Shown: piece by piece, positions 21,405 through 46,383 of the stretch
Layout of the letters: every line of letters starts with the position of its first letter
Numbering within the stretch: position 1 is the first letter of the stretch
Virus record (IMG/VR): IMGVR_UViG_3300028920_000079
Span: 1 to 58,269 of that record
Length of the DNA stretch: 58,269 bases
Source: a virus
Lineage: Duplodnaviria > Caudoviricetes
Reading direction: 5' to 3' (one strand)
Notes under the pieces: model-generated
Database searches by the model: none
The model's input: the letters and a program-made list of their open reading frames with translations, nothing else
Told to the model about the DNA's origin: nothing
Translations under genes and position numbers: made by a program

Positions 21405-21770
21405 CTATTCTTTCCAAGTCATAATCGTGTACATGTTGGTGCTTGTAGTATCGGAACAAGTAATAAGCACCTTGGCGTTCCTGTCAAGTTTAATGTCACC
21501 GTCTACGTATGCGGCTGTGTTTGTAACGTCATTCGATATATAGAATCTATTCGTAATGCTGTTGTGAATAACCGACATCGTAACATTGTTGCTACGGCCC
21601 GGCTGCATGGCAACAAAGATAGCCTTGATAGCCGGTATCCTGCCGGTTGCATTCGTATAGACAGTTGAGCCGCCGGTAAAGGTTTTGGTCTGTGTCTTTT
21701 CCCAGCCTGCCGCTATTGCCAGTCCTGCTACCAGTACTGCGATAGTTATGAGTGTGAGTTTCTTCTTCAT
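21405..21770 (-). CDS. Secreted small beta-rich protein at the end of the virion operon
   Basis: MKKK, hydrophobic core, AIA|A signal peptide. Confidence 0.7.
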   Translation of the reverse strand: MKKKLTLITIAVLVAGLAIAAGWEKTQTKTFTGGSTVYTNATGRIPAIKAIFVAMQPGRSNNVTMSVIHNSITNRFYISNDVTNTAAYVDGDIKLDRNAKVLITCSDTTSTNMYTIMTWKE

Positions 21771-21793
21771 TGCCCGTCTCCTGTGTGTTGTGT

Positions 21794-24700
21794 TTATTGC
21801 GCTCGTAGTTTGCGTAATCGCTGTATGCGTTTTGTTTTCTTTCTGCGTTTTGTGTCTTCTAAATATGGATCAAAAACTTGCTTAACATCCGCTCGTCGTG
21901 TCAATCTTTGCCTTAATCGTGATTGCTCTTTCTTGTTCGGTATGGCGTAAATGAAAGCCATAACATGCATAGGATCATACTCCCTCGTCATAACTTTAGC
22001 AATCATTTCATCTACCGTTTTATCATTCTTTCGCCTATCACGTAACACAGTCATACGATCTTGATAAAGCTCTTCGTATACCGGATTGAGTTTGCCTATA
22101 GAGTAGGGTGGCAGAATATCAAGCGGTGTACGTTCTGCAGGCTTACCTTCCGGCGTAAGATATGGCGGGATATATTCGCCAAGCAACTCACGCAAGAATG
22201 GAATATCCTTAACAAGAGCTTGCGTTGCAGTCTCAGGATTACGATAGGGTCTATCTATCCATTCATTAACGTAGCGTAGCAACCCACTTGCAGGAATAAC
22301 TTGCCCTGCAGTGAACCCAAAGTTCCGCGCAAAAGAATAGTCATCCATGTCAATAGCGTTAATGAATCCATTTAATGCAGCAAAAGGTGTCTGTGTTAAA
22401 TACCAACGATTCAAACCTTTGATAGCACCTGCGAATTTAGCAACATTGCTAGCATTTGCATACGTTGGATCATCTGCGACTTTATCGCGTATAGCTGCAG
22501 GAATTGCTAAAGCCAAGGCAAAGGGACCAAAAGTCCAAAGCGGTACATCATAGTCACCGATGCGAATTGAATACGGTTTTCTGCCCATATAAAAAGCTTT
22601 CTTAGCTTCAGGATCTCTAGGTGGTGCCCACGTAGTACGTCCGGCTATAGCCAACATCATACCAATAAAGCTAACAGTAGTACCAAATAAAGCCTGCCCT
22701 GTTCTAAGACGAATTTCATCATCAACTAAAATCTGTTGTTCTTTTGTTAGATTGTTGAACTTTTGCCCATACCGTTCTTTTGCTATACGATTTTTCGTTA
22801 ATGGTAACCCAGCAATGAAAGGCAAGAATGATGTATTCACACCTTCTTGTGCAATCTTTGTTGGCGTTCTAAGGAATCTAGCAAATGGCGCAAAGAATGG
22901 ACCTATGTACGGCATTGATCTCATCTTCTGTAACGAATAACCGAAAGCATCCAAGAAACGATTGATTACATTCTCGGTGGTATCCGTCATTGTTTCGCCT
23001 AATTCTTGACGGAACAATAATTTCTGAGCTTGTTCTTCAGCTTTTTGATAAGCTACTTCTGGCGTCACGCCCTTCTTAATTAAGCGTTGCGCGGCACTCT
23101 CTTTAAGTATGGTGCTGAAAAATTTATCCTGAGCTTCAAGAAAGCGTCCGATAAAAGTAACGGCAGCAGGTAAACGTTTATTGACTGCTTCGTCTAAAGT
23201 AGTTTCGCCGACCTCTTCAAAAAGTTTGGATGTATCATAACTATTCATCGCATTACGAAATTCTTGCCATGCTTGCCCAATATTTTGAACAGACGTTATG
23301 GCAAAACGAGCTGCTTCAACCGGTTGTCCAGCAAAAATCAAGCGTCCCGGTGCAAGAATACCAGTCATAATAGAATTGCCGACTATATTACGTTCATGAC
23401 TTTTAGGACTGGAAAGCATATTGCTATACAAATATGCACGCCAGAAAAACTTGGCCTTCTCTTTCCTTGGTAATTCTGCGACAATAGTATCAATCACATT
23501 TTGAACAGCCGCCGCTCGTGCATCAGCGTCTTCAATAGCTTCTGCTTGAGCAAATAATTCTGCTGCTCTATTCAACAACGCTTTAATTTTAGGTGAATCT
23601 GTTGAAATACGCCGATCTCGCATCCACTTTTTAACCACTCTCAAATGTAAGTCTGATCTACCTTCAGGCGTCAACAACTTAAACTCACGAGCAAAACGTA
23701 GTAATGTACCAGCAACAGTCCAGTCTTCCGCAGCAAGTTCTAATGCTTGACGCTTCGTTGTTTCATCTACGTTTTTGGCGTTAAGAATACCGGTCAACTT
23801 TGCAACACGATCATACGAGTCCTTTGTTTCTCTTGCTTCCTCAAGTAATCCTGCTGCATCTTGTGTTGCTTGCTCTGTGGCCTCTGCTACTTTCTGTGCA
23901 ATCGGTGTATTCTCCGCAAGATTAGTACCGGCATCACGGGTTTCTTTAACTGCCTGCCGAAACTCAGGGTCTTCTGAGGCACGAGTTATTGTTCGACGTT
24001 CGTGCATGCCTTCAGGAATATCAACCTCAATGTCGGGTTCTGCTTCAAAAGATTCTATTATAGATTCCAAGTGCTGACCGCTTGTGTCTGCGTCATAAAC
24101 AGGCGTTCCTTCTACCGTCTTAGCTGCAACCTCTTCCAGCACCGGCACAGCCTCTTCCGCAACAGGTTCCTCGACGGGTGCTTCCATCTTGGCGGGTTCA
24201 GTTGGTTTTCGTATAGCCTCGGCAAACAGCGGCATTTCAGATTCACGAGTATCAAACAGTTCACCCGTTAAATCACCGGCTGTACCGGCAATAGGCGCAC
24301 CAGCCCGTCGTTCAATCTCTGCCTGTTGCCTACGAGTCTCTGCTTCGGTTGCTAATTCCTTTTCTGTTGCCGCTTCTAATGCGAATGGTCGTTTCAAACT
24401 ACCCTTGTCAATACGAAACTCTTCATTAAGATCAGGCTCATACGGCAGGTATATATCTTCTTCTGGTCCTTTGATCTGAAGCGCAGTGTCGGTTTCCGCT
24501 ATGACTTCATGTGGCTTACCGTCGATAGTAAACGTGTCGCCAACCTGCATATCGGCTGCTATTACCTTATCTGTGCGTTCTTCTAACTCACGTTGTTTCG
24601 CTTCAGCTTCTGCTTGCAAAGCATCCCAATATGAATCGGGCATATCTTGAACAACACGTCCTCGACCTTTGCCTTGTAAAGCAGTAACTAAATCATCCAT

Positions 24701-29215: not shown

Positions 29216-30151
29216 TTAGTACCAATCTAAGGGACTCAGCGAAGTTCGGGATGAACTTTGACCACCCAAACCTGTAAACAAACCAGCTATATTGCCAATC
29301 CCACCAATCATTGCTGCGCGATTTTGGGCACCTGCTTGTCGTAACTGCATAGATTCATTCATTCGCGCCAATTCCATTTGCTGTTGTCTATTTAATGCAT
29401 TTTCTTGTCCTGCAAATGCACGTTGCAAAGCATTCTGTTGTGCTTGTGCCGTAAGTCCTGCACTCTGACCAAGGGTACTAGCCAATCCACCAGCACCAGC
29501 CCCGTATGCCTGTGTCCCTAATGCCGCTGCCTGCAATGCCGGTCCCGGTGCCTGCATACCAAGTGCGACACCTTCAAGCTGGCGTTGCCGCTGTTGTTGT
29601 CGAACACCAGCTCTTGCCTGTGTTTTAGCACCAGCTTCTGCTGCTGCTCTGGCTAATGCCACATCGCGCTGCAATGCTTGTGATCGGGCTGACGTAGGTG
29701 AAATACCTAAACGTGAAAGCTGGCGTTCCTGTTGTTCAGGTATTGCGGCATATGCTTGCCTAACTTCCGATCCTGCTCTTTCTGCGGCCTGTTGCTGCAT
29801 AAGACCAATAGGTGCAAAAGATTCCTTAATAGTCTGTTGAATGTGTGGCTTGGCACTCGTGAACAGCTCGAACATCTCTCGCGCTCGCATAGCCTGCTCT
29901 TCGCCTGATGCTGTAGCAAACTCAAAGAACTTTCGCTGTGCTTCGATAGCTTCAAGCTCCTCTGGTGTCAGCTCGCGAGTCAAGTCAATAAAAATATTTT
30001 GTCCCGCATCTGCTCTATCTATTGCACCCGTTAAGCCCTTACCTAATCTTCCCATTTCTTCGGAAGTTAAAACAGGTGCATTCGGATCATTAGCATTATC
30101 GCCAATAGGCCGATAAATTGGTACTTGTTCGCCTTGTCCCGGTGTTACCAT
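29216..30151 (-). CDS. Internal virion (ejection) protein
   Basis: Q/A/G-rich, Gly-rich hydrophobic C-terminus. Confidence 0.6.
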   Translation of the reverse strand: MVTPGQGEQVPIYRPIGDNANDPNAPVLTSEEMGRLGKGLTGAIDRADAGQNIFIDLTRELTPEELEAIEAQRKFFEFATASGEEQAMRAREMFELFTSAKPHIQQTIKESFAPIGLMQQQAAERAGSEVRQAYAAIPEQQERQLSRLGISPTSARSQALQRDVALARAAAEAGAKTQARAGVRQQQRQRQLEGVALGMQAPGPALQAAALGTQAYGAGAGGLASTLGQSAGLTAQAQQNALQRAFAGQENALNRQQQMELARMNESMQLRQAGAQNRAAMIGGIGNIAGLFTGLGGQSSSRTSLSPLDWY

Positions 30152-30161
30152 AACAATTCTC

Positions 30162-30740
30162 CTAATCGCTAACAATGTACTGGAAGTACAAGTTCAATTC
30201 ACCCGCAGTTAGATTTTCCGCCGCAAGCGTAAGGACGATATTCCTTGCCGCTGTTGAAATAGTGGTGAAATTGGCCGCTGTACCGTCAGGAACTGCATCA
30301 TGTGCACCTGCATCCCATACATTTCCACCTGCACTGATAGCTGTAGTATTGACTATACCGGTTGTATCATCAGTTCCTACACCTATTGCTATGGTTGCCG
30401 CATCAGTAGCCGACTGAAAAGTAGTCTCGACAATATAGAACGCTCGAACAATATAAGCATTATCAGGAATCTTCGGCCCTAATGTATATGGACTTGCCGC
30501 AACCGTTTTACCGGCAGTAGCATCAAAATTAGCCCTAACCCAAGGATTGCTGATCTGCGCCCACTGTAAGGTAGAATTGCTAATCAGTATCCAGAACGAT
30601 CCATCGTCTTCCTGCCTCGCAACCTTGCCAATATCAGAAGATGTCATAGTTGTGACAGCTTCTCGTTCTGCGGCATCGTCATACGAAAAAGCATGAAGGT
30701 TATGTAAGTTAGTCGTTACCAATTCTTTATGTAAGGCCAT
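30162..30740 (-). CDS. Virion structural protein
   Basis: Short fibre-like N-terminus plus decoration-like beta C-domain. Confidence 0.55.
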   Translation of the reverse strand: MALHKELVTTNLHNLHAFSYDDAAEREAVTTMTSSDIGKVARQEDDGSFWILISNSTLQWAQISNPWVRANFDATAGKTVAASPYTLGPKIPDNAYIVRAFYIVETTFQSATDAATIAIGVGTDDTTGIVNTTAISAGGNVWDAGAHDAVPDGTAANFTTISTAARNIVLTLAAENLTAGELNLYFQYIVSD

Positions 30741-30758: not shown

Positions 30759-31079
30759 CTACGGTTGAATTGTGACAGTATTACCGTCATTATCTGTCAC
30801 AAGATTGCCATCTTCATCGAATACATTCAGATAATCACCCTCTACAAGTACATCCTGAAACGGTACAGGTGCCGCCAAATTCGGATTATATACGACATTA
30901 TTAGCGTCAACTCCGATAACACCTATATCACGTAATTGCTGTACTGTCAAAAAGCTATCGAGAAAATTCCCCTCCCTGCCTAATCCTATCTGCAGGATCT
31001 TGGACAACGCTTCAAGGATCTGACGTACCTTAAGATCCTCAATATGCGTTGCACTCGGAATACCTCTCTTTATAGCCAT
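30759..31079 (-). CDS. Tail-associated protein
   Basis: Follows nozzle gene; IP..L..L...G..G..LD. Confidence 0.5.
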   Translation of the reverse strand: MAIKRGIPSATHIEDLKVRQILEALSKILQIGLGREGNFLDSFLTVQQLRDIGVIGVDANNVVYNPNLAAPVPFQDVLVEGDYLNVFDEDGNLVTDNDGNTVTIQP

Positions 31080-31082
31080 AGC

Positions 31083-33194
31083 TTACAAATCCTGCATACT
31101 CGTGCTCAGGACAATACTCTCTATCTCATCATCCGAAACAACCTCTATTTCCCACGTCTTCTCATCCCGTAACACCTTGAGCTTACGGGCTTTATCGTTG
31201 GTAACTGAAAGAGACAAGACGGCTGTAGCGTTCTCGTTGGCATATAAGTTAAGAGTAACTGGATATGTATTTGCTACCACCTGAGTCACGCTAGGCGACC
31301 ACCGTCTTGGAAGTTGATAAATCTTTCCGCGCCATGTACCTGTAAGATTAGACGAGCCTTGCCGCCAACCTTTAACAGCATCACCCTGTATCAGGTACAG
31401 TACATCCGTCTCATCGTCGGAATATAGACCGGCTGTAGTCTCATCAGTTTCAACCAAGGTTGAAGCACCTTCGCCGAAGTCAAAGATGATACCTGTGCTA
31501 TCTGTCCAGCCATGATATATCCCGTCATGCACTTCACCTATCATAGTATCAGGGTCTATTGCATTCCACTGCTCACGAGTATAGAAGGATTCGGTCACTA
31601 GAGTGCCTAGACCGGCCTGTACGGCCACTAAACCGTCCGGGCTAGGGTAAACTACGGTTTCGGCTATTCTCGCCATTCCTCGCTTGGATACGCAAGCCTG
31701 ACGGATACTGAGCTGGGCTACTGACATTGCATCGGGTTCGTAGCCGGTAATCGCATAGGGTATGCCTTCTGTGCCGACAACAAGTGTATTCTCGGATACT
31801 TGTAGCCCTACAATATCTTCGTCTATTGTAATGGCATAGTCTTCCGGCCATGCGTGAGGCTGATTTATTGCTGAGAAGAAGACTGTTTTACCCTTGAATG
31901 CGGCAAGAAACCCGCCGGGCATACTGACTACACCCTTCAAGCTTGAGTCAGGTGCATCCCAATTGGCTGAAGGTAGGACTTCATCTGTCTCGTCGTCTGT
32001 CAATGAATCGGTATACGAGGTTGTAGCAAGGTCTATCTCGGCAACGTAATAGTAGTCTGTACCGGCATTTGTGGTAACTGTCCGATATATCCGCTTCTTC
32101 GTTACATTGGCGTACCCGGTAACTGACGTGTCCATATTGCTTACCACAGCGTCCTGCGTTGGATCTATATCGACTGCGGTACTTGGACTGGAAGGCGGTC
32201 CTTCTTCGCCCCAATCGGTAACAAAGGTGTAAACATATGCTCTTGATACGGTATAGTCGGCAGCTCTGCTGGTATCGTATGTGATGGTAAGCGTACATTC
32301 GGGTGAAGTAGAGCTGTTGACCTGTGTTGATGTACCGCTTGCACCGTCCAGTACGAAGTCTGTATTGCTTGCATATTGGCTTGTTGCCGGATAACAGGTG
32401 CCTAAGCTTGCACCGTCTGCACTTGCGGCTGTAAACCAGAGAATGAACTTAGCATCTGCACTGGCTGTAGTCTTTGTAGGAATAGTCTCGATCCGATATG
32501 ATTTACCGGGTGTAACTTCATTGACATTAGTACCGCTGTAAGCACCCTCAGTAAGTGTACCTGTCTGTGATACTGTACCGTCCGGCTCTTCGTAGTAATA
32601 GTACCAGCTTCGCGTCCATGTAACAGAAGCTTTATCTGAGGCTGTAATCGTTGGTGTATTCGTCGGAACCGGCAGTCCAAGGGTATACTCTGACTCGTCT
32701 GCATCGACAAGCGTCAAGGATGTCATTTCCCATACAACTGTCCCGTCTGTAACGGTATCGCCTACACCTTTTCCGCTAATACTGGGTGCTGCTGCTGCGG
32801 AAGTACCACCGGTTGTAACTTCCCATACGGTTGTGCCGGTTTCCCATCGCGCTTTCTGGCCTAACGTATAGGCTGTAGAGTTCTCGCGGATAAGTACACC
32901 TCTAACCTTGGGTGCATCGTCTCCGGTATAATATATCCTTGCTCTCTGATCGTCGGCAATAGGACTTTTTACTACGTCTACATCGGTTGTCCAAGATAAC
33001 CATGCACCGTTGTATGAGTAGATAGATATACGGCTGGAATCCGGCAAGGTAGCAACATCGCTTAGACCGGCCAATGGTTTGATATTCCCTGATTTCAGGT
33101 CGAGGTTAGTAGCAACCTGAGCCTGCGTGTCCGATAATAGTCTCGGTGCTATCCTCGGAACAAGTCCTTGAAATCCTGTGAGTTTAATCTTCAT
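31083..33194 (-). CDS. Tail nozzle/stabilisation protein (beta-propeller type)
   Basis: F.G..PR..PRLL..AQ.A.N; RAYVYTFVT.WGEE..PS; PHAWP..Y; CVSKR. Confidence 0.75.
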   Translation of the reverse strand: MKIKLTGFQGLVPRIAPRLLSDTQAQVATNLDLKSGNIKPLAGLSDVATLPDSSRISIYSYNGAWLSWTTDVDVVKSPIADDQRARIYYTGDDAPKVRGVLIRENSTAYTLGQKARWETGTTVWEVTTGGTSAAAAPSISGKGVGDTVTDGTVVWEMTSLTLVDADESEYTLGLPVPTNTPTITASDKASVTWTRSWYYYYEEPDGTVSQTGTLTEGAYSGTNVNEVTPGKSYRIETIPTKTTASADAKFILWFTAASADGASLGTCYPATSQYASNTDFVLDGASGTSTQVNSSTSPECTLTITYDTSRAADYTVSRAYVYTFVTDWGEEGPPSSPSTAVDIDPTQDAVVSNMDTSVTGYANVTKKRIYRTVTTNAGTDYYYVAEIDLATTSYTDSLTDDETDEVLPSANWDAPDSSLKGVVSMPGGFLAAFKGKTVFFSAINQPHAWPEDYAITIDEDIVGLQVSENTLVVGTEGIPYAITGYEPDAMSVAQLSIRQACVSKRGMARIAETVVYPSPDGLVAVQAGLGTLVTESFYTREQWNAIDPDTMIGEVHDGIYHGWTDSTGIIFDFGEGASTLVETDETTAGLYSDDETDVLYLIQGDAVKGWRQGSSNLTGTWRGKIYQLPRRWSPSVTQVVANTYPVTLNLYANENATAVLSLSVTNDKARKLKVLRDEKTWEIEVVSDDEIESIVLSTSMQDL

Positions 33195-33675
33195 CTAATG
33201 ACTTTGGTAACGTGTATTCTTTGTTGTAATGATACCATGCAACCCACCCGCCTAGCCGGACACCTCTGTAAATGGACCAAGCTCTAAACTTGTTAGTGCC
33301 GCCTAAACGACAAGCATCGTAAAGAATCTCATCCCATTCCGCTCTACTCAAAATACATGAATATCCGGTCAATACGTTATAGCGAGGCTTAAATCTGTTC
33401 CGATAGCCGTGATCGTGGATAACTGCGCCGCAAGTCTCTCGCTTGTTCACGCCGTAAAAAATACGTAATAGCCTCGGAATGCTGGCTAGATCGGATAAGA
33501 AGCTATCTTCTATTTCTACGCCCCAGCCCCTCCTGCTTATATAAAGGAACGGTTTAGCAACTTTCCATTGCTTGTGCTCACCGAAAGGCGGATAAAGTAA
33601 AGGCTCGCCGCAAGGCAAACAACCGTAAGGCTGAAGCATTGAGGAATCATATTCACTTAAAAAAAGTTGCTTCAT
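33184..33675 (-). CDS. DUF1353-like protein
   Basis: F.SDLASIPR..AVIHD..Y..R...D....Y.GVRLGG. Confidence 0.8.
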   Translation of the reverse strand: MKQLFLSEYDSSMLQPYGCLPCGEPLLYPPFGEHKQWKVAKPFLYISRRGWGVEIEDSFLSDLASIPRLLRIFYGVNKRETCGAVIHDHGYRNRFKPRYNVLTGYSCILSRAEWDEILYDACRLGGTNKFRAWSIYRGVRLGGWVAWYHYNKEYTLPKSLDED

Positions 33676-34629: not shown

Positions 34630-35715
34630 TCATGGTAAGTACTCGTCATAGCCATGCAGTTTGTTTGATCCGTCGATGTATGCATTGTCCGAGTCAACGT
34701 ACACTCGAAATGACGGGATGTGCTGGTCCGCGCCGATGTCCCATGTGTCGTTTTCGGCGTCCCGGTCTCTGCCGTCGATGTCGATATTTACGCCTGTGGG
34801 TGTTGTTCCGAGATCCTGACCCGCATGAACAAGTTTCGCTCCCGGTTTAAGGTGCAAATCTTCAGAACCTGTGACAGTCGAAACAAACGTGTTTGCTGGA
34901 ATAACGCCTGTAAGAGTGTTGGCACCCTTGCCGCTGATCGTACCATCCTCATCAGCATTGTTGCTGAAGTTTGCGTAACCGCTGCCGGAATTGATTACCC
35001 AGTCCGCGCCCTCATTGCCACCTGAATAAACATTGCGATATTCGGAACCTCCATTGTAATTGAGTCCACGATTAACACCGCTTGAACCATGGCAATGAAA
35101 GATCACACAGTTAAAAATGTTGCAGCCTGAGCCACTGGCAGACATTACCGAGTTTGCATTGGATTGACCTGTATTGTTCTCCATGTGATAGGCTATGCAA
35201 TTAGCTGCAATGTCATTCGGATAGAAACAAGAGGTTGTTGTTGAAGATGTTTTGCGAATTCCGTGAACTATCAAATTGTAAAAGTCAGCACCGGCTGTTC
35301 CCCGAACAGCATAAGTCACATTTTGCAAATTCGCATCGACTTCCAACCATCTAATCTTTGCAAGAGCAACACTGGCAAACAGGATGTCAGTCACGCCGCC
35401 TGTGGATTTGACTATTCTTGCACCTGTTCCCGCCGTTCCGTCGTGCCGATCTGCCGCGACAACAGTCAATGTTACTGATACTAATCCGACAGTACCACCG
35501 CCGTTGATAGTGACAGATTCATTAAATGCGCTATCGTTGTAGCATTCACCTACAGCAGCATCACCCGCTGAATAGATGTTCGTCTTGTCCAAATCGGCCT
35601 CCCATAGGGTTATCGTAGAATAATCCCGGCCAGACGTTCCAATGCTCTTCGTAACCGTTGCAGCCCTGCACTGCACCGCCACCATCACCAACAGTATGAC
35701 AACCCATCGCTTCAT
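34630..35715 (-). CDS. Signal-peptide-bearing beta-helix (tailspike-like) protein
   Basis: MKRWVVILLVMVAVQCRA|A; RDYSTI..WE; DLHLK..DIDG..R..WDIGADQ. Confidence 0.7.
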   Translation of the reverse strand: MKRWVVILLVMVAVQCRAATVTKSIGTSGRDYSTITLWEADLDKTNIYSAGDAAVGECYNDSAFNESVTINGGGTVGLVSVTLTVVAADRHDGTAGTGARIVKSTGGVTDILFASVALAKIRWLEVDANLQNVTYAVRGTAGADFYNLIVHGIRKTSSTTTSCFYPNDIAANCIAYHMENNTGQSNANSVMSASGSGCNIFNCVIFHCHGSSGVNRGLNYNGGSEYRNVYSGGNEGADWVINSGSGYANFSNNADEDGTISGKGANTLTGVIPANTFVSTVTGSEDLHLKPGAKLVHAGQDLGTTPTGVNIDIDGRDRDAENDTWDIGADQHIPSFRVYVDSDNAYIDGSNKLHGYDEYLP

Positions 35716-36572
35716 CGTATCACCTCGACCGCTTTTGCTTTCAGAACGTTCTTGAGTTTGATCGCTGACTTCGTTTTGCGATAGTCTTTCTTCTTGCTCA
35801 CATTCTCAATGTCAGCCTTTTCTGCCTCCGAAAAGCCCAAATCATTCTTGTAGTCGAGCCTGTTCTTGCGCTTCTTCAACATCACCGGTTCTTCGTCTTC
35901 ATCTTCCGGTTCGCTCATCAGCGGTGCCATTGCATCGGAAGCTTCTGCATCCGTCATATCGTCAACCTTCAATGCTAGATGCTGCTTTAATTCACGCTCG
36001 GTATACGGAAACTGCGTATAGTCTTTCCGGTCATACGCCGTGTTCTGCTCGATCAGATCCCACATGACATTCAGATCATCTTGACTTGGCGTAACCGCAC
36101 CACCGTACCAATACTCTGCACCGGGTGTTCCGAAGATAAGATGCTGCTTCGATTTCAACCTGCGTTGAAGAAATAAAGGCACATTCATATACTCGCCGTC
36201 TGAATTCGGCTTGTTGCTCAACACCTCAACCGCATCGGTCGCCAACGTAACACGCTGGATCTCATACTTGCTTATGCGCCGAAAGACATACTTGGAACGC
36301 TTCTGCATCCATGCGTCAAGCACTGTGCCTGCCGCTCGCAACCCGTGTTTGTTGAATCCAAAATTACGCTTGTTGCAGATGTTACTGACATGCACTTCCG
36401 CAATACGCCGATCATTAGCAGCATGTAGAATATCGCCGTCCTTGTATTGCGGACCATTGCCAACGTGTACTATGACGTCAGCCGCAGATGCAAACAAGAG
36501 ACACATCTTGATGATGCTCAGAATCGTGACTGCGTAAACGATCATTAGTGTGACTGTGTATCGTGATCTCAT
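35712..36572 (-). CDS. Signal-peptide-bearing tail-associated protein
   Basis: Hydrophobic N-terminus ending ASA|A; YKDGDI. Confidence 0.6.
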   Translation of the reverse strand: MRSRYTVTLMIVYAVTILSIIKMCLLFASAADVIVHVGNGPQYKDGDILHAANDRRIAEVHVSNICNKRNFGFNKHGLRAAGTVLDAWMQKRSKYVFRRISKYEIQRVTLATDAVEVLSNKPNSDGEYMNVPLFLQRRLKSKQHLIFGTPGAEYWYGGAVTPSQDDLNVMWDLIEQNTAYDRKDYTQFPYTERELKQHLALKVDDMTDAEASDAMAPLMSEPEDEDEEPVMLKKRKNRLDYKNDLGFSEAEKADIENVSKKKDYRKTKSAIKLKNVLKAKAVEVIR

Positions 36573-36584: not shown

Positions 36585-39530
36585 TCAGAATGCGTAGTGA
36601 ACCTGAACATGCTCAACTGCGTTCGTGTACGGAACAACGTTCGTCTGGGAATCGTAAAAGATGCCTGTGTGCTCATTCAAGGTATAGCCGTCCTTGACGC
36701 GCCACTGCCATGTGCTTGCAATTATCTCATTAGTAGTCAGTCCCACTTCAGGATTGACCTGATACCGATTAACATAGGTAGAGTACAAGTCGTTCGTTGT
36801 AATGGGCGTAATGTTCGTTACCATGGTTCCGGCCACTATGTTATACACCTGACCGCTATTAGGAATATAACCGTACTGTGCCTTCGTTCCATTGATATTG
36901 GCGAAGAAGGTCATAATGCCACCCAACTTGCTAGGTGGTATATCACGCTTGGCAAACTCTACGATTTCCGGCAACGTCGTTATTTCGTAGTGGACATACT
37001 TCGGGTCGGTGCCGCCGGAGAATGTCGCTTTGCCGGTTACGCGCATGGTGCCGTTGACGTCAAGTCCATAGGATGGGGTTGTGTCATTGATACCAACATA
37101 GCCCGGATTATCCAAGGTCAGAACAGTTTTTGAATCACCATCATCCTGTATTTGAAACATCATCCTCGAATCTTCTGTTCCCGTGGTAACATCCTCTGTG
37201 ATAACAAGTATCTCTGCCATTTCCTGTAATGTTGTATCAGTAATTGAATGATTAAAGATTAACCGTCCAACCGTATCACCATCAGCAGGAGATGGAGTAA
37301 CTTTATCGAAGGAAATAGCCGCGCCTCCTGTGCCAGAGATATTAGCAGCAAGTCTCATCATCGTACTGCTACTACTCTCTACTTCAAAAGTTGTGCTTGG
37401 TGGATTCGTCCCAATCCCCACCATGCCATTCGTCACATACAGCGTGTCGTCAATGTTTGCAGTGCCGTTGACGTGCAGCTTGGCTTCGGGCGAGGATGTG
37501 CCGATTCCGACCTTGCCATTCAGATCAATAATCAATCCGTTGACGCTTGCGCCCCAGCTTAATCCCGTAACGAACTTGAATACATCCAAACTATCGTCGT
37601 AACCAGCCCAGCACCATCTATTGTCACTTTCCGAATCGGTCCGGAATTGCAAAACAGAATCATTAGTACTCGTATTAGTAATCCTGATATATTGTGGAGT
37701 TGAACCGCTAACCTCAAGATGCGTTCCCGGACTTGCAGTCCCAATCCCCACGTTACTGTTCGTCACATACAGCGTGTCGTCGAGATTAAGCCGCCCCGTC
37801 TGATCGTCAATCTTGCCACCCTGCATCAGCAGTTGACCGGACAACTTCTGCGATCCGACAACATGCAGGTTCGTACTGGGTGTCGTCGTTCCGATTCCGA
37901 CATGGCCGTGATTATTGATCCGCATACGTTCTTCAGGTGCTGTTTGGGGTTGCTGATGAAAACGATCTTCTGGCGTAAAGAATGCCAATGCCATATCATC
38001 ACCATAATTATACTCAGAGAAACAAACAATACGACACCGCTTGAAGTCATTATCTTCATCAATTTGAAAATCTAATGAAATGCCAGCATTCGTTGTATCT
38101 TGATGATGCGTGTTCTGCAATCGAATGGCCTCCCAAATAGTTGCTTCATCTTTTTGTATATGCAGCGATTCACGCGGTATGTTCGTCCCAACGCCAACAT
38201 TGCTATTCGTCACATACAGTGTGTCTCCGAAGTTCGCAACCGTTGCTTCAACCGGACTGCCCTGCCTGAGTATCTGTCCTGAACTAACTGTATCGCTCGC
38301 TATAAGAACACCGTTGCTGCTCCAAATACGGTTTGCACCATAATAAGTCGAGCCAGTGGCCCCAAGGAACGTATTCAAGTATGGCGTGATAAATGATCCT
38401 AATGATAATGTGTTGCTACCATTCGGAAAAATGTCGCCACCGACGGTAAACCCTGCATCCCGCTCAGCCGTCCACACTGGATCAATCTCATCGCTCGACC
38501 CGAAACCGGGTGTCTCAAGGCGTGTGTGATACGGATGGCCCAAGTATGTCACCACCGTCGCACCGGCCCCCTGTGCGGCGCGCACCAGATAATAAGTCAC
38601 GCCGACATACAGACTGCTGTTCGTAATCGCCGTATCATTCGCCGCGCTCACGCGGTATTCAGCAATCGCCCCGCCGATCTCGCCGCTCAAATTGGACGTA
38701 TCAATGATGTTCGTTGTTGCGCCATTGTCATCGGAATAAAATAATTCAATGTATCCCTGAACAGTGCTATTTCCCACTGTTTTTTCAGCCGCAAAGACAC
38801 CCTCGTAATTGCCTTGCTTTATCACTTCGACAGGATTAGTATAAATAAAACTTCCTATCAAATTAGTGCCAGCACCCAACACGTTCGTCACAGCCGTTGC
38901 CGTTTCGTGAGCAGTAATCAGCGAACTCGCCCCGGCAATCACCGGATGCGCCGTCAAACTGCCGTACAGATCCAGAACCGACAGATCCGCGAACAGATCA
39001 TAGACCTGTGCCCTATTGATCAACTGGTTCGTCACGCTGGCATACGGACCGTACAGCCCGATCGTCAACGTGTCGCCGTCATCCAGCTTATTCGTGCAGG
39101 CCGTGTCAGCGTAAACTTTCGCCGTGTCAAGCGTCGTGTTCGTAGCCGTCGCAACGGTGGTATCGGTGTATGACTTGGCCGCGGTCAGCGTGGTATTTGT
39201 TGCAGTCGTTACAGTAGTATCAGTGTACGACTTCGCCGCGGTCAGCGTCGTGTTCGTCGCCGTATTGATCGTTGTATCAGTGTATGATTTCGCCGTAGTC
39301 AACGTCAGGTTCGTAGCTGTATCAACATAAATCTTCGTTGCCGCATCGTTAGTGGCAACAGGTTCGCCTAGTCCCGTAATCTTATAATCGTTCAATTTAA
39401 GATCCTCGGTAGCATCAATACCCGTTGCTCTAATCAACTGCCGCCCGTCCTTTAGACTTATGCCCGCATTCACACCTGCAACAATTGCGAGTAACAGAGC
39501 AAATCCACAAAGCGTTTTGACTATCTTCAT
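36585..39530 (-). CDS. Tail fibre / receptor-binding protein with signal peptide
   Basis: MKIVK..LLLAIVAGVNA|G; 18-aa TATNTTLTAAKSYTD coiled-coil repeats; repeated N(V)GIGT..P...L.V.G. Confidence 0.8.
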   Translation of the reverse strand: MKIVKTLCGFALLLAIVAGVNAGISLKDGRQLIRATGIDATEDLKLNDYKITGLGEPVATNDAATKIYVDTATNLTLTTAKSYTDTTINTATNTTLTAAKSYTDTTVTTATNTTLTAAKSYTDTTVATATNTTLDTAKVYADTACTNKLDDGDTLTIGLYGPYASVTNQLINRAQVYDLFADLSVLDLYGSLTAHPVIAGASSLITAHETATAVTNVLGAGTNLIGSFIYTNPVEVIKQGNYEGVFAAEKTVGNSTVQGYIELFYSDDNGATTNIIDTSNLSGEIGGAIAEYRVSAANDTAITNSSLYVGVTYYLVRAAQGAGATVVTYLGHPYHTRLETPGFGSSDEIDPVWTAERDAGFTVGGDIFPNGSNTLSLGSFITPYLNTFLGATGSTYYGANRIWSSNGVLIASDTVSSGQILRQGSPVEATVANFGDTLYVTNSNVGVGTNIPRESLHIQKDEATIWEAIRLQNTHHQDTTNAGISLDFQIDEDNDFKRCRIVCFSEYNYGDDMALAFFTPEDRFHQQPQTAPEERMRINNHGHVGIGTTTPSTNLHVVGSQKLSGQLLMQGGKIDDQTGRLNLDDTLYVTNSNVGIGTASPGTHLEVSGSTPQYIRITNTSTNDSVLQFRTDSESDNRWCWAGYDDSLDVFKFVTGLSWGASVNGLIIDLNGKVGIGTSSPEAKLHVNGTANIDDTLYVTNGMVGIGTNPPSTTFEVESSSSTMMRLAANISGTGGAAISFDKVTPSPADGDTVGRLIFNHSITDTTLQEMAEILVITEDVTTGTEDSRMMFQIQDDGDSKTVLTLDNPGYVGINDTTPSYGLDVNGTMRVTGKATFSGGTDPKYVHYEITTLPEIVEFAKRDIPPSKLGGIMTFFANINGTKAQYGYIPNSGQVYNIVAGTMVTNITPITTNDLYSTYVNRYQVNPEVGLTTNEIIASTWQWRVKDGYTLNEHTGIFYDSQTNVVPYTNAVEHVQVHYAF
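39113..39327 (-). repeat. Four ~54-bp tandem repeats in the tail fibre
   Basis: DT(T)..TATN(T/L)TL..AK(S/V)Y, four times. Confidence 0.8.
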
Positions 39531-39553: not shown

Positions 39554-40615
39554 TTATTCGGCAAGTCGCCATATACCAAAAAATACATTGTTCAATCCAA
39601 CGATTGCATTTGTGCTTCCATCGGAATTCGCATGAATAGTGACATTATAATCAGTAAATAGCTGAACAGGCCCATATAGCATAGCAATATCTTTAGAATC
39701 GTCGGCAGTCATAGGTGTGCGCCACCGAACCATTTGTTCTCCATTTGTATAAATATAACCATACAATGCTTGTGATCCGGGGTTTTCAGTAAATCGAAGA
39801 CGAGCATTAACCATATAATAACCATCTTGACTTACTTCGTATAAATTTGTTCCGTTATAGTTTCCATCAGTATCGGTTACTTCGGTTTCAAAATTCACAC
39901 GAGTAATAACACCATTAGCGATATTTTGCTGAGTGCTTTTAGTTGCAAAGAAAAATGGCGTATTCGCTTCATCCGAACTGTTCGTATCCAAGGCAGGATA
40001 GGCATTAGTCATATCATCAGCTAGTGTCGTCTTGTCGGTATACAGATCCGAATACGCATTAGTCATCCAATCGGCCATGTTGTTCGTTATACTAACCGTT
40101 GTGCTGTAGTTGGAAAAGGTTGATACCATTTCGTTAGACAATGACGTTACCTGAGTATTGACATATGTCACAGAAGCCAATGAATCCGTAACAATAGCAC
40201 CATCACCTATGTCATACTGCCCGGTATCGCCCCAGTCGGGCCAACGATAAATGAATGAAGCCGTACCTGTAGCATTACCATTACCCTTGAAAATCAAGTA
40301 AGGACCAGCAACAAGCGGATTAGTGTTGAATCTGACAATACAGTTATTCGTAATATCAAGGCAACTATCGTCAGTAACGCAAACAGTGATATTCGATGGA
40401 AAGGTTACGTTGGTAGTAATAAGCCAATCACCGCCGTCCAGTACGAAACGTGCATCTCTTGTGCCGAATTTTGTAATCATGTTCGTAAGCGTTGTCGCAT
40501 TCTTGCTTCCGTATTCCTTAACAGAAATCCAGCTAGAAGGCGTCGTGTCGCTACTCGCTACAACCAGTCCAACAATTGCGTACAGCGTGATAAGAAGAAT
40601 TAAAGCTTTTTTCAT
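39554..40615 (-). CDS. Signal-peptide-bearing fibre protein with C1q-like C-terminal domain
   Basis: MKKALILLITLYAIVGLVVA|S; F.A...Q....V.F.TE..D....Y...GYY.V....F.G. Confidence 0.7.
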   Translation of the reverse strand: MKKALILLITLYAIVGLVVASSDTTPSSWISVKEYGSKNATTLTNMITKFGTRDARFVLDGGDWLITTNVTFPSNITVCVTDDSCLDITNNCIVRFNTNPLVAGPYLIFKGNGNATGTASFIYRWPDWGDTGQYDIGDGAIVTDSLASVTYVNTQVTSLSNEMVSTFSNYSTTVSITNNMADWMTNAYSDLYTDKTTLADDMTNAYPALDTNSSDEANTPFFFATKSTQQNIANGVITRVNFETEVTDTDGNYNGTNLYEVSQDGYYMVNARLRFTENPGSQALYGYIYTNGEQMVRWRTPMTADDSKDIAMLYGPVQLFTDYNVTIHANSDGSTNAIVGLNNVFFGIWRLAE

Positions 40616-40627: not shown

Positions 40628-40984
40628 TTATGCAAAGGTTATTGCCGAAGATACGCCAACAGGACCAAGTACAACGCCTGCCAAGTACCATGTCCCTGTC
40701 CCGCTATGCGTAAAGGTTTTTGTCAGTACACCGCTCGAATTAGTTACTTCGTACCAAAGCGTCTCTGTATCGCCGTCAGGTGGAACCGCACTCAGTTCGC
40801 CGGGCGTAGTCGAAGCGTCGATAAGCCAGAGCCTAAGCAGATAATATCCCGTCTCGTCCACTGTTATCGTAACTGTAATCGAATCTGAAGTCTCATCACC
40901 GACACTGATAATGAATGGTGTATTCGGCGAAACAGTGCTGGCCCTGACCGCAAGACCTGTTAATGTATCTGAACAGCATGACAT
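40628..40984 (-). CDS. Small beta-rich structural protein
   Basis: Position in tail module. Confidence 0.5.
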   Translation of the reverse strand: MSCCSDTLTGLAVRASTVSPNTPFIISVGDETSDSITVTITVDETGYYLLRLWLIDASTTPGELSAVPPDGDTETLWYEVTNSSGVLTKTFTHSGTGTWYLAGVVLGPVGVSSAITFA

Positions 40985-41364: not shown

Positions 41365-41378
41365 TGTATAGTCCCTCG

Positions 41379-42005
41379 TTAAAAGCTATCGGTATTAACC
41401 GCTCTCGACCTCGGTACAAAACCAAATGCAGGTTGTGCCCGCAAACCAACATTCAAGCTTCCGCGTGTTCGCTCGATGTTAGCCGCTGACATTCCGCGTA
41501 TCCAAAATTGTCTGTGGAAAGTTGAACCTTCTTTGTCAGTCCATGTCTTGTTGGGATATGCCTTAAGGTACATAAGAACGCCGTGTACCCATGATCGGCG
41601 GTAATCGGCATACTGTCTGTCGCATACTTTGGTAGCAGTAGACTTTAGCCGTAACGCAACTTTGACTACAAGACCGCTGGCTATATCTGCCTGCGGTTCA
41701 TCTTCCAGTTCTATAGTTGTCTTGGTTCCAACCTTGAGCTTGTAGTCTTCTACTTCCTGCAGGTATGTGTCCTGTTGCTTGACAGAGCGTACAAGGAAAA
41801 TCTCTGCACAACTCTCTGGACTGTCTAGTTCGTATTCTGTCTTATCTTCGCGGATATTGATTGCGTCTAAAGTAGCTTGCCAGTTAAGCGTTTCTTCATT
41901 GAACTCAATGATAACGTCTCGAATAACATCGAGCATCAAGGCTTGAGGACAACCCGGTAATTCGGTAACAAGGTACTTGTACAATGAAGATAGTTCTGTA
42001 GCCAT
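41379..42005 (-). CDS. Head-tail adaptor / tail tubular protein A-like
   Basis: ELPGCP..IR..IEF..T..W..P...W. Confidence 0.7.
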   Translation of the reverse strand: MATELSSLYKYLVTELPGCPQALMLDVIRDVIIEFNEETLNWQATLDAINIREDKTEYELDSPESCAEIFLVRSVKQQDTYLQEVEDYKLKVGTKTTIELEDEPQADIASGLVVKVALRLKSTATKVCDRQYADYRRSWVHGVLMYLKAYPNKTWTDKEGSTFHRQFWIRGMSAANIERTRGSLNVGLRAQPAFGFVPRSRAVNTDSF

Positions 42006-42340
42006 TATGCTAACTCTCCCGCAAAGTAGGTACGATACGTAGCCGCAAGATTCATGTTGACACTATCTTCTGAATCTTTGGATAAAGCGCGAAAGGCTAC
42101 ATAGTACAGTAACGTATCTATGTAGTCATCGCTGATAGATAGAATATCATCGGTCTCTGTAATGGCACTAGGTGCCGTTGTTGTTACAGAGCTTACGTAG
42201 AAAGCTTCTGGATGCCGACGCCAAATCTGATTCTGACCATCCGTAATGTAGGTCATCAGTTCTGTATCGTCATAACGATACTCTTCTACTTCGTCAGATA
42301 TGAGTTCTCGAACACGAGAAATAAAACCTGAAACAAGCAT
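42005..42340 (-). CDS. Head-tail adaptor-like protein
   Basis: VR.L..D...RY.D.EL..YI..RP-like..L..YV..RA..KDSE. Confidence 0.65.
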   Translation of the reverse strand: MLVSGFISRVRELISDEVEEYRYDDTELMTYITDGQNQIWRRHPEAFYVSSVTTTAPSAITETDDILSISDDYIDTLLYYVAFRALSKDSEDSVNMNLAATYRTYFAGELA

Positions 42341-42352
42341 TTAACCCTCAAC

Positions 42353-42898: not shown

Positions 42899-42960
42899 GT
42901 TATATAACTCCTAGTTAGCAGGAGCCGGAAGTGTTGGCTTCCGGCCCCCAACCGTATTCT

Positions 42961-43380
42961 TTAGGCAGCTATGTCAACAACCATAAGACGTATTGTCAGC
43001 TTCATCGTGTCTGCAGCATTATTTACCGTTACCAGTATATAATCAGCCGCGTCGTACAATTTGCTAACCGTAGTCGTTACAGTTGTACCGTCGCCACCAT
43101 CACCCATTTTATAGGTGCCGGAATTGCCGTTAGCACCGGTCAAGAACGTAGTAGCAGCATCACTATCGCCTACTTCAAACGTCATTGTCCCGCCTTCCAG
43201 CGTATCAACAATAGCAACCAGCCCGATAACGTAGCTGCCTGCCGGAATCGTAATGTAACGATCCGTATCAGACGCACCCGCGTTATTAGCGGAATAGTCT
43301 ATTGTGTTTTCCAGCACATTTATCCGTCGATGTCCTGTATAAGGTGCACCAGCTTTTACAAGTGAAGTCCTATCAGTCAT
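42961..43380 (-). CDS. Capsid decoration/cement protein
   Basis: Directly after MCP; IPAG..V...VGD...Y.AAD.I. Confidence 0.65.
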   Translation of the reverse strand: MTDRTSLVKAGAPYTGHRRINVLENTIDYSANNAGASDTDRYITIPAGSYVIGLVAIVDTLEGGTMTFEVGDSDAATTFLTGANGNSGTYKMGDGGDGTTVTTTVSKLYDAADYILVTVNNAADTMKLTIRLMVVDIAA

Positions 43381-43419
43381 TTTTTTACTATCCTCTCTGT
43401 GATGTTAATTTACTTGTAA

Positions 43420-44355
43420 TTAGCCCTTATAGGCGTAGAGCCAACCAAGAGCTTCGGCCTTTACAACCTTATACCCGTAGACCTGAAGACCACGATGCAG
43501 TGTTCCAAATCCATTCGGATTAGGCAGCACTTCATTTTCGGTCAACTGACTAGCGAATGTAATCGCGTGATTTGTCCCGAATATGATATTCGTCGCTGTC
43601 TCACCACCGCCATCCGCTGTAGTCGTAAGCAGATTGCTTGAATACAACATGAAGCGATCAATCATACCAACCTTACCATTGCGAGCGATAGACACGCTAT
43701 CACCTGCAAGGGAAGCATCCTTCAGGTCACTCTTCTTGATCATACCCAAGAACCAAGGCGGAACCACCATAAACCTACCGGACTGCGGTACATTCTCTTC
43801 GTCGAGAACGGTGCCACAATCGGTAATAACGTCTATGACGTTAGCGGCAGTTACTTCCAACGGACTACCGGAAACACCAAGGTTGATGTCACCAGACTTG
43901 CGTCCAGCAGTAGAACCCTGATTATCAGAATCAGCATTCGAATAGACGTTCGCAAGAATCTGCGTGTCTATCGTAATCTTCATCTGCTCGGCGGCATCAC
44001 TGGTCCACTTATCAACGTAATCCTTGATGTCGGTCTGTGCAAGATCAACACGATCTGCAACAAACGACCAGCTCTTACCCTGATCTATGTCAAGCGAAGT
44101 CGCCGTGCTTTCCGGCTGTTCGTAGTCAAGAGTCTGACCTTTACGATGCGTATTGATCGTAATATCCGGCAAAGTTCTGATATGAACCTTGTCGCCCTGT
44201 TTTGTTATTGCTCCTTCGTAGTCTGTATTGGTTATATCGCCCAATACCGTATTGTCGTAGAACTTAATTAAAAGTTCGCCAGCCCATACTTCGGGAATGT
44301 AGTCCATAGTTGAACTACCAATGTCCCTAAATCCCGCTGCTGCAGAGTATCCCAT
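43420..44355 (-). CDS. Major capsid protein (HK97 fold, P22-coat-like)
   Basis: IPEVW..NTDYEG.I..GD.VHI..IDQ..LDE.NVP..GRF..GLQVYG.KV. Confidence 0.9.
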   Translation of the reverse strand: MGYSAAAGFRDIGSSTMDYIPEVWAGELLIKFYDNTVLGDITNTDYEGAITKQGDKVHIRTLPDITINTHRKGQTLDYEQPESTATSLDIDQGKSWSFVADRVDLAQTDIKDYVDKWTSDAAEQMKITIDTQILANVYSNADSDNQGSTAGRKSGDINLGVSGSPLEVTAANVIDVITDCGTVLDEENVPQSGRFMVVPPWFLGMIKKSDLKDASLAGDSVSIARNGKVGMIDRFMLYSSNLLTTTADGGGETATNIIFGTNHAITFASQLTENEVLPNPNGFGTLHRGLQVYGYKVVKAEALGWLYAYKG

Positions 44356-44398
44356 TATCCACATCCTCTCTTATACAGCACCGGTTTCCCTGCAAGAG

Positions 44399-45436: not shown

Positions 45437-45505
45437 TTGTCTCTCCTATTGCGCGTTTCTAACGGGCAAGTTAATAACTGGAATTGCCTAAACGGGTTTC
45501 CAGTC

Positions 45506-45760
45506 TTACGATGTTTTCTCTTGGACTCGCAAAGCTTCGTCGAAGAGCCTTAAAAAATCCTCTAATGCTTGTGCATATCCTTGACCGGTGAAAATGTCGT
45601 CCTTCGATGCACGTCTATTTCGTTTGTCTTGTTCCCTTAAACAGTGTTCAGCCCAACTGTGTATTTCCAAAAAATCCCTGTTCTGCATCAAGTTTATAGC
45701 GGCCTTAAGTATCCTCGCCTGTCTATTCTCTGGCTCTCTGCTGTTTGGAAGATCGAACAT
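45506..45760 (-). CDS. Small head-assembly protein (Bbp19-like)
   Basis: N.DF....W....QG.AQ.L..L between portal and scaffold. Confidence 0.65.
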   Translation of the reverse strand: MFDLPNSREPENRQARILKAAINLMQNRDFLEIHSWAEHCLREQDKRNRRASKDDIFTGQGYAQALEDFLRLFDEALRVQEKTS

Positions 45761-45769
45761 ATTTTCGCT

Positions 45770-45860
45770 TACAAGCAAAAAGAAAGGCAATACAGTGACA
45801 CGGCACCGTATTGCCCTTCTTCGATATTCATCGCAGATAAAGTAGCTAGCTCTATCCGCT
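45770..45860 (-). promoter_or_regulatory. Two-hairpin leader/terminator before the head genes
   Basis: Stems 45833-45859 and 45780-93/45808-21 followed by U-tract. Confidence 0.55.
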
Positions 45861-45876
45861 TGCTTGAGTTTTTTTG

Positions 45877-46383
45877 TTAATTATTAGTTACGCGATTCAC
45901 CTCATACCACAAGTTCGTTGTAGGTGCTCTAAGCTCAATCACAGAGCCATTGTCGCCTACAAAATCACCATTCAGTACCAGATTAGCATCCGTTTCTTTC
46001 AACTGAATCAGATTCGTTGTAGTGCTTGACAACATCAAGCACAGCCATTTACCAGCCGTACCGGGATTGGGAAGCGTAATGGTATTCGTAGCGTTATTCG
46101 CGCTACCTATACCGCTAACAACGTAACAATTCTTTGCAACAGCTACAGTGGCATTGTTCGTCAGTGACTGTGTGCCGACAGCATTGATATTGTGTCCTTC
46201 AAACGTCAGAGCACTAGCAAACGTAGTAGCCGCCGATTTGTCCACAAGGTTCGTAGTTTTAACCCACGTCCCGTCAGACAAACCAATCTCATTGATACGT
46301 ACTCGCTGTCTCCATGCCGCTTCGGACACAATGCAGCTTACAGCAATAAATGCCAAAGTGCATACTATTTTGGTCCACTTCAT
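45877..46383 (-). CDS. Signal-peptide-bearing beta-rich protein between portal and scaffold
   Basis: AGGAG RBS; MKWTKIVCTLAFIAVSCIVSEA|A; TITLP..G..W.EV.R. Confidence 0.7.
   Translation of the reverse strand: MKWTKIVCTLAFIAVSCIVSEAAWRQRVRINEIGLSDGTWVKTTNLVDKSAATTFASALTFEGHNINAVGTQSLTNNATVAVAKNCYVVSGIGSANNATNTITLPNPGTAGKWLCLMLSSTTTNLIQLKETDANLVLNGDFVGDNGSVIELRAPTTNLWYEVNRVTNN

Follow-up and report, generated by a model that had tools for sequence, protein, structure and literature searches.

Sec-type leaders on the receptor-binding-type proteins of a temperate podovirus-type phage, and a possible two-compartment route of virion assembly

Six genes in the virion module of the phage record IMGVR_UViG_3300028920_000079 (IMG/VR; 58,269 bp, linear, estimated 80% complete) encode proteins that begin with Sec-type leaders. 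The record was analysed over its whole length, hereafter called the window, and is most of the genome of a temperate podovirus-type phage; that the phage is temperate follows from its integrase gene (19658-20788, minus strand; phrog_1, E 1.4e-22). As judged from the sequences of the window and of its relatives, the leader pattern is a real, conserved feature at the level of the clade, and the leaders very probably work as export signals. In the textbook account, tailed phages assemble entirely in the cytoplasm. For this phage we give about even chances to a divided arrangement, in which the portal, scaffold, capsid, adaptor, nozzle and large post-nozzle proteins are ordinary cytoplasmic proteins forming a core, and the outward-facing parts are made as Sec pre-proteins. 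The latter set would consist of the protein with a C1q-like tip (39554-40615), the large fibre (36585-39530), the beta-helix protein with its partner (34630-36572) and the protein encoded just after the portal gene (45877-46383).

Six leaders in the virion module

The original prediction, made from the letters of the window, had described a basic N-terminus, a hydrophobic core and a small-residue cleavage motif on six open reading frames (ORFs), and all three elements are present in the six translations. Every virion gene lies on the minus strand, these six included. Leaders were called with a home-made heuristic for the n-, h- and c-regions, and cleavage sites were picked by hand; an arrow marks the predicted cut in the motifs below. 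The 168 amino acid (aa) protein encoded just after the portal gene (45877-46383) has the N-terminus MKWTKIVCTLAFIAVSCIVSEA followed by AWRQ, with motif SEA↓A and a predicted leader of residues 1-22 (DNA 46383-46318). The 353-aa receptor-binding-type protein (39554-40615) has MKKALILLITLYAIVGLVVA followed by SSD (VVA↓S; residues 1-20, DNA 40615-40556), and the 981-aa fibre protein (36585-39530) has MKIVKTLCGFALLLAIVAGVNA followed by GIS (VNA↓G; residues 1-22, DNA 39530-39465). In the 286-aa protein (35712-36572) a long leader or anchor, MRSRYTVTLMIVYAVTILSIIKMCLLFASA, precedes ADV (ASA↓A; residues 1-30, DNA 36572-36483), and in the 361-aa right-handed beta-helix protein (34630-35715) the leader MKRWVVILLVMVAVQCRA precedes ATVTKSIG (CRA↓A; residues 1-18, DNA 35715-35662). 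The sixth, a 121-aa protein (21405-21770), starts with MKKKLTLITIAVLVAGLAIA followed by AGW (AIA↓A; leader of approximately residues 1-20).

The n-regions carry Lys or Arg within the first 2-5 residues in all six proteins, and no acidic residue stands ahead of the h-region. The best 8- or 10-residue Kyte-Doolittle windows of the h-regions score 2.7-3.9, and five of the six h-regions are approximately 11-17 residues long. Small residues occupy positions -3 and -1 of the predicted cut in each leader. All six ATG starts are preceded by a GGAG/GAGG-type Shine-Dalgarno motif at the usual spacing, and the longer alternative starts (TTG at 46440 and ATG at 39572) lack such a motif. Pfam gave no match for any of the six leader-bearing proteins.

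Across the window the heuristic flagged 11 of 99 greedily called ORFs of at least 45 aa, namely the six and five others (46-138 aa) outside the virion module. Within the module, six of the 24 minus-strand ORFs of at least 90 aa between 21405 and 50064 were flagged. The background rate was 21/635 (3.3%) in 67 more distant capsid relatives, several of these flags being Ala/Val-rich N-termini that we judged not credible, and 10/434 in 43 distant relatives found through the nozzle protein. Against the former rate the binomial probability of 6/24 is approximately 1e-4, and the leaders in the window look real rather than a product of chance.

The core proteins had been said to lack leaders, and the heuristic indeed flagged none of them: the portal protein (46394-48448; phrog_332, 1.3e-43, and phrog_1216, 3.5e-15), the scaffold, the major capsid protein (43420-44364; phrog_267, E 5e-57), the 208-aa adaptor-like virion protein (41379-42005; phrog_437 'virion structural protein', E 9e-14), the 703-aa nozzle-like tail protein (31083-33194; phrog_511, E 1.4e-130) and three large post-nozzle proteins.

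Conservation in the clade and the fibre slot

A capsid-based sample of 80 related loci was drawn blind to the leaders. The heuristic flagged 32 of the 147 ORFs of the 13 closest loci (capsid identity of at least 57%), with at least one flag in 12 of the 13; for the 67 loci, whose capsids are 49-56% identical, the figure is the 21/635 given above (Fisher P 3e-12). The count for the closest loci is inflated by L054-L056, which are near-identical. The sole unflagged locus among the 13, L060, has a post-portal leader-bearing ORF that was dropped by the ORF picker.

Four loci found via the N-terminal domain (N-domain) of the 353-aa protein (L045, L050, L051 and L052) have capsid proteins 57-60% and nozzle proteins 34-49% identical to those of the window, the 703-aa nozzle-like protein itself having 34-49% identity to the proteins of L045, L051 and L052. 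These loci and the window share the gene order 111-208-121-118-(leader-bearing fibre)-nozzle. Syntenic homologues of the 353-aa protein stand before the nozzle gene in these four loci and in L054, where the leader begins at an internal Met, and all five loci have leaders at the same two positions as the window. The leader trait is conserved in the clade of the phage, and relatives that come from different samples keep it at the same positions.

The fibre slot of the window lies between the 208-121-118 block and the nozzle gene. The 208-aa adaptor-like protein, syntenic in relatives, forms its upstream boundary and the nozzle-like protein its downstream boundary. The 118-aa protein (40628-40984, minus strand) is leaderless, lies directly upstream of the gene for the 353-aa protein, and is kept in L045, L050, L051 and L052. 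In the more distant loci L001 and L030 leaderless fibre-like ORFs are found between the 208/121-type genes and the nozzle gene. The close relatives L065 and L069 carry giant leaderless proteins in the slot and the 118-aa gene is absent. Leader-bearing and leaderless appendage sets thus appear interchangeable on similar cores. No other, leaderless fibre candidate was recognised in the virion module of the window. Next to the nozzle-side fibre slot of L054, a leader-bearing protein (15616-17094) contains a concanavalin-A-like lectin domain (PF13385, 6.4e-11).

The C1q-tipped protein and its family

The 353-aa protein consists of a conserved beta-rich N-domain (residues approximately 30-140), a linker of low model confidence and a C1q/TNF-like tip (approximately 215-353). 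In the AlphaFold2 model the N-domain has pLDDT values of 92-98 and the C-terminus forms a jelly roll. The tip matched the CBD of the short tail fibre of cyanophage A-1(L) (8ke9; Foldseek 1.4e-4; VIA Z 11.1, root-mean-square deviation 3.7, 136 residues aligned) and 9k09_A, a chain of the cyanophage A4 portal-tail complex (Z 10.2). Further matches were to C1q/TNF-like domains, including other phage receptor-binding tips, and in BFVD to C1q and tail-fibre proteins; structure searches with the whole model were dominated by the tip. A PDB sequence search with an alignment of the N-domain (A2) matched no solved structure. The receptor-binding nature proposed for the leader-bearing proteins is supported by this tip, by the tail-fibre matches and beta-helix fold described below, and by the location in the fibre slot.

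Among cluster representatives the family has 346 relatives at E ≤1e-3, of which the best 150 were inspected. By a profile built from alignment A1 the N-domain is present in 120 of these 150, and 97 of the 120 were flagged as leader-bearing. Six or seven of the 23 unflagged members are leader-bearing by eye and approximately five have other extensions. In alignment A2 the N-domain is kept over approximately 130 residues and the C-termini are unrelated. Across 40 relatives the N-domain has 41% identity and the remainder of the protein 15%. The h-region has a pairwise identity of only 19% in the same 40 proteins, with a mean Kyte-Doolittle value of 2.27 (standard deviation 0.34). With a variable sequence but a constant hydrophobicity, the leader shows the pattern of evolution expected of a signal peptide. 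Protein searches by word index, with the N-domain and with alignment A2, gave no proteins beyond those already found, tblastn with the 353-aa and 361-aa proteins found nothing in phages, and the N-domain profile found nothing in three genomes with distant prophages or in 401 sampled genomes of the same phylum.

When a single site was picked for each of the 97 flagged members, Gln was the commonest residue at position +1 (24/97), and a candidate cut followed by Gln is available in 41/97. Exposure of an N-terminal Gln by signal peptidase I is described as a rule specific to Bacteroidetes (PMC5837995, PMC10653852). The cleavage sites of the relatives accordingly look host-tuned, and because the cuts track the preference of the host peptidase, the leader would act as a signal peptide and not as a structural docking helix. 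None of the six predicted cuts in the window itself has Gln at +1. Shine-Dalgarno sites as strong as those of the window are atypical for Bacteroidota. From these two features together, the host of this phage is probably from a phylum other than Bacteroidota.

The beta-helix protein and its partner

The label of beta-helix given to the 361-aa protein is upheld by an AlphaFold2 model (pTM 0.82) whose top Foldseek matches are right-handed beta-helix enzymes. PL6 alginate lyase (7dmk, 1e-4), lacto-N-biosidase and pectin methylesterases head the list, and phage tailspikes stand lower in it; a PDB sequence search with the protein gave no match. Its gene and the partner gene share 4 nt, the start of the former lying over the stop of the latter, and the predicted mature part begins ATVTKSIG.

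It had been predicted that homologues from other hosts would start near this mature N-terminus, and most of the homologues inspected do so. The family comprises 940 database relatives at E ≤1e-3, and the best 120 (119 excluding the query) were inspected. Of these 119, 73 by regular expression and another four by eye begin M-[A/P]-T-[V/I]-T-K-S-I-G, so that the bare start coincides with the residue after the predicted cut, QCRA↓ATVTKSIG. Four of the 119 have a leader of their own, unrelated in sequence, directly before the motif. In 37 the motif is directly preceded instead by a different N-terminal extension of approximately 13 to 65 residues, in most cases helical with one or two repeats of the type RTLQLLEAIARxLGLLPPLP. 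This extension could give the protein yet another mode of attachment or routing, besides the bare start and the leader. A single homologue starts inside the protein. By this comparison the leader would be an add-on, placed exactly at the N-terminus of the family.

The gene upstream of the beta-helix gene encodes its conserved partner, the 286-aa protein, for which neither Pfam nor PHROG gave a match. A leaderless 259-aa protein of L044, whose gene likewise lies directly upstream of one for a beta-helix homologue (start MATVKTSIG), aligns over its residues 7-250 with residues 34-271 of the 286-aa protein (31% identity, 2e-36). The partner homologue, too, begins at the predicted mature end. The leaderless pair is found in the virion modules of L048 and L049 as well.

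The 981-aa fibre, the post-portal protein and the 121-aa protein

The naming of the 981-aa protein as a fibre is supported by matches to PHROG tail-fibre families (phrog_18345, 5e-14; phrog_9942, 6.5e-13) and by tblastn hits to annotated tail fibres. The latter involve residues 399-843 and eight phage records, including the distal tail fibre of Thermus phage phiFa and tail fibres of Synechococcus phages. A phmmer search against PDB sequences found fragments of Bdellovibrio MAT proteins, 8ojn_C (3.3e-7, residues 522-598) and 8oml_A (0.009). A scan of viral contigs with this fibre found no related locus.

The 168-aa protein had been placed between portal and scaffold. It does adjoin the portal gene, but a 94-aa ORF separates it from the scaffold gene. 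Its predicted mature part begins AWRQRVRINEIGL. Post-portal leader-bearing proteins of 148-590 aa occur in L045, L050, L054, L057, L058, L060, L061, L062, L065 and L066, and every close relative whose sequence includes this position has a leader-bearing protein there. In this family, conservation sets in right after the leader with a motif of the type [A/N]W[R/E].., followed by fibre-like repeats. Just after the gene, and overlapping the start of the 94-aa ORF, is a hairpin (45779-45822, minus strand) with a 19-bp stem and a T-rich tail, which may be a terminator, attenuator or RNA-stability element inside the late operon. The motif of the post-portal family is also seen at the mature N-terminus of a leader-bearing 250-aa protein of L063 (5649-6401). 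The C-terminal part of this protein is 49% identical to a leaderless 192-aa post-nozzle protein of the window (30162-30740, minus strand), so that one tip domain occurs both in a leader-bearing and in a leaderless protein.

The 121-aa protein (21405-21770), encoded after a gene for a 2055-aa protein, was counted among the virion-module proteins in the original prediction. Its leader is present, but it has no relative or family match, and its place among the virion proteins is presumed from its position. Between its gene and the integrase gene lies an ORF for a 109-aa protein (20763-21092, minus strand) with two or three C-terminal hydrophobic segments, which has no family match and is a holin candidate by eye only.

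Comparison with known systems

Cellulophaga phage phi18:3 (NC_021794.1), a cultured podovirus of Bacteroidota, has 12 coding sequences annotated as structural 'based on experimental MS/MS proteomics analysis' (MS/MS, tandem mass spectrometry). Among these, gp085, gp086 and gp087 ('tail protein') follow one another and begin with leaders that end in Ser or Ala before Gln (..S↓Q or ..A↓Q), and the other nine of the 12, the portal included, are without a leader. The same split between core and appendages is thus seen as in the window. The two phages differ in that tblastn with the 353-aa and 361-aa proteins detected no sequence similarity to phi18:3 and that the phi18:3 leaders end before Gln, whereas those of the window do not. 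In addition, the host of phi18:3 belongs to Bacteroidota, whereas the window uses strong Shine-Dalgarno sites.

T7 gp17 and P22 gp9 are a leaderless podovirus tail fibre and tailspike, respectively. Leaderless proteins of this kind, represented here by the fibre-slot ORFs of L001, L030, L065 and L069, share with the window proteins the genomic slot, the combination of a conserved N-terminal part with a variable tip, and the fold types, namely C1q/TNF-like tip, beta-helix and fibre repeats. They have no Sec-type leader, however, whereas each of the window proteins begins with one.

Outside phages, the MAT fibres of Bdellovibrio bacteriovorus are described as a signal peptide, a beta-rich domain of approximately 130 aa, a fibre and a tip (PMC10769870). 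The family of the 353-aa protein mirrors this architecture, and the 981-aa fibre matches the MAT fragments 8ojn (Bd3182) and 8oml (Bd1334) by sequence. MATs differ in being encoded by the chromosome of a predator, which displays them on its own surface, and not by phage virion-module genes. In Porphyromonas gingivalis prophages ('Nixviridae'), genes of unknown function bearing leaders that follow the Gln rule are read as potential modifiers of the outer membrane (PMC10367356). Their Sec leaders are like those of many relatives of the 353-aa protein; these genes differ in that the passages on them neither describe them as fibres nor make a claim about virion assembly (PMC10367356).

A possible two-compartment assembly route

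Virion membership of the leader-bearing proteins is probable, and we infer export, cleavage, periplasmic maturation and late docking from the leaders and from the kinds of protein that carry them. Under the proposed route the leaders would send the appendage proteins through SecYEG into the periplasm of a host assumed to be diderm, where host signal peptidase I would cut after the small-residue motif and the fibres would trimerise and accumulate. DNA-filled particles still without fibres would meet these appendages only when the inner membrane has been opened by the holin, or following lysis, and the appendages would then dock on the tail. P22 heads turn infectious when purified tailspike is added in vitro, and lambda-type holins make very large membrane holes; for these two reasons late docking is physically plausible.

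The claim that receptor-binding parts are exported stands as far as the leaders are concerned, which are real and clade-conserved, and the proteins are receptor-binding-like; the cultured phi18:3 adds leader-bearing proteins that its record annotates as structural and MS/MS-detected. Its fuller form, in which the clade builds its particle in two compartments, with a cytoplasmic core and with all receptor-binding appendages Sec-exported, processed, stockpiled in the periplasm and docked after the holin breach, we put forward tentatively, at slightly less than an even chance. In such a scheme the stockpiled appendages may also mask or trim the receptors of the host itself. We lean a little against, but take seriously, the further proposition that this is a route not described for Caudoviricetes and that phages with a common core can exchange it for the leaderless one. 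Full-text literature searches turned up no published account of tailed-phage fibres with Sec leaders, or of virion parts that mature in the periplasm.

Several observations weigh against the two-compartment route. The leader calls come from a home-made heuristic, and the cleavage sites were picked by hand. The virion evidence for phi18:3 is the annotation of the record, and the leader there could be uncleaved. Approximately 10 of the 120 N-domain members have no leader, their starts lying 7-20 residues ahead of the domain, so the domain needs no export. The h-region of the 286-aa protein is borderline anchor-like, at approximately 25 residues including one Lys, and a membrane anchor is possible. 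The 121-aa protein is a weak member of the set and could be part of a cassette for lysis or exclusion instead. Docking confined to a short interval around lysis looks inefficient. A diderm host is assumed, yet a scan of the window for lipoproteins and spanins gave no convincing candidate. Finally, the Cys content of the mature leader-bearing proteins (17/2138 residues, 0.80%) is to be compared with 35/6846 (0.51%) in the rest of the module, and beta-helix homologues with a leader have a mean of 2.4 Cys versus 4.8 in those without, so that the expected benefit from oxidative folding is not seen. A rationale based on disulfides or oxidative folding was considered and rejected, as there is no clear Cys enrichment in the mature leader-bearing proteins and Cys is scarcer in the leader-bearing beta-helix homologues.

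Alternative explanations

The leader-bearing proteins could be exported accessory factors and not virion parts, which we regard as unlikely. They would mask or destroy receptors, exclude superinfection or serve as surface proteins of the lysogen, roles to which we give the same low probability, and would resemble fibres through targeting the same surface glycans. The phage is temperate, and beta-helix and lectin-type domains (Laminin_G_3 in the L054 homologue) suit glycan modification. The reading of the Porphyromonas prophage genes as potential outer-membrane modifiers points the same way (PMC10367356), and so does the display by Bdellovibrio of leader-bearing, phage-fibre-like MAT proteins on its own surface (PMC10769870). 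A strong hairpin also follows 45877-46383. However, the post-portal gene before this hairpin is universal at its position in the clade, and the six genes sit in the late operon with gaps to the upstream gene of 10, 12, 23, 12, -4 and 23 nt. Their G+C is 0.468 against 0.460 in the rest of the module, and promoter-like sites are not in excess (18 found versus 23.2 expected). A moron or lysogenic-conversion gene would be expected to have a promoter and a terminator of its own, an unusual composition and a site between modules; apart from that hairpin, we saw none of these marks. The genes moreover fill the slot that leaderless fibres occupy in relatives, we recognised no further candidate for a fibre in the window, and the leader-bearing proteins of phi18:3 are annotated as MS/MS-detected structural proteins. 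The original prediction had itself named lysogen surface proteins as its alternative; the operon gaps, the G+C and the lack of a promoter excess disfavour it, while the temperate nature of the phage still leaves it room.

A second possibility is that the hydrophobic N-termini are not used for export, and that the proteins stay on the cytoplasmic side, membrane-tethered or with the helix buried in the tail, and are assembled in the cytoplasm. This would keep the textbook order of events. The hydrophobic stretch of the 286-aa protein is of anchor length, leaderless members of the beta-helix and 353-aa families imply that the folds can mature in the cytoplasm, and no Cys enrichment was found. By the positive-inside rule, however, a mature part that is preceded by a basic n-region and then an h-region lies outside. 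Nor is the sequence of the leader conserved as that of a docking helix would be, only its hydrophobicity being kept, and the small residues at -3 and -1, with Gln at +1 in relatives, point to host signal peptidase I. We consider retention in the cytoplasm unlikely, and slightly less likely than accessory factors.

A mixed fate is improbable in our view. Most copies would be exported, early or mid-late, to mask or trim receptors, and a fraction, or a pool released by lysis, would join virions. Such a scheme joins the export evidence with the receptor-binding evidence and would supply a selective benefit without disulfides, but direct evidence of an envelope-modifying activity is lacking and no internal start for a leaderless isoform is visible near the leaders. 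It is very improbable that the hydrophobic N-termini arise by chance or from mis-called starts, since, although the heuristic also flags some short ORFs and some Ala/Val-rich N-termini, the 6/24 in the module exceeds the 3.3% background (P approximately 1e-4), each of the six starts has a Shine-Dalgarno site, and the trait recurs at the same positions in relatives from other samples.

Other features of the window and of related loci

In addition to the genes discussed above, PHROG matches identified a 'tail assembly chaperone' (phrog_1158; 33184-33675) and a virion protein (29216-30175) on the minus strand, and an endolysin (6819-7235) on the plus strand. The nearest cultured capsid is that of Rhizobium phages (45.5% identity). 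The window has no DNA-level match to known phages, and no tRNA or rRNA was found in the record. A hexanucleotide-based tandem repeat with periods of 6, 18 and 54 and up to 22.5 copies lies in the early region (11600-11747). In one frame it gives a Trp/Leu/Arg-rich ORF (11380-11784) that is probably spurious.

Two related loci differ from the window in gene structure. A 179-aa post-nozzle protein of L045 (11718-12257) combines an N-terminal part like the 106-aa protein of the window (30759-31079) with a C-terminal part like the 118-aa protein. In L066 the terminase-like and portal genes (1911-4492 and 4753-7839) are each split into two ORFs matching single genes of the window; insertions, introns, inteins or frameshifts could account for this.

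Significance

If the proposed route is true, the folding of such fibres would depend on the host Sec pathway, signal peptidase, and periplasmic chaperones or modifications, and their recombinant production or engineering would need the leader to be handled correctly. Cellulophaga phage phi18:3 is a cultured system in which the question is directly testable. The masking or trimming of host receptors before lysis is an attractive idea for the selective benefit, although a speculative one. Features of the leaders, such as the Gln rule, would be usable for host prediction, and the timing of lysis would be coupled to the completion of the particle.

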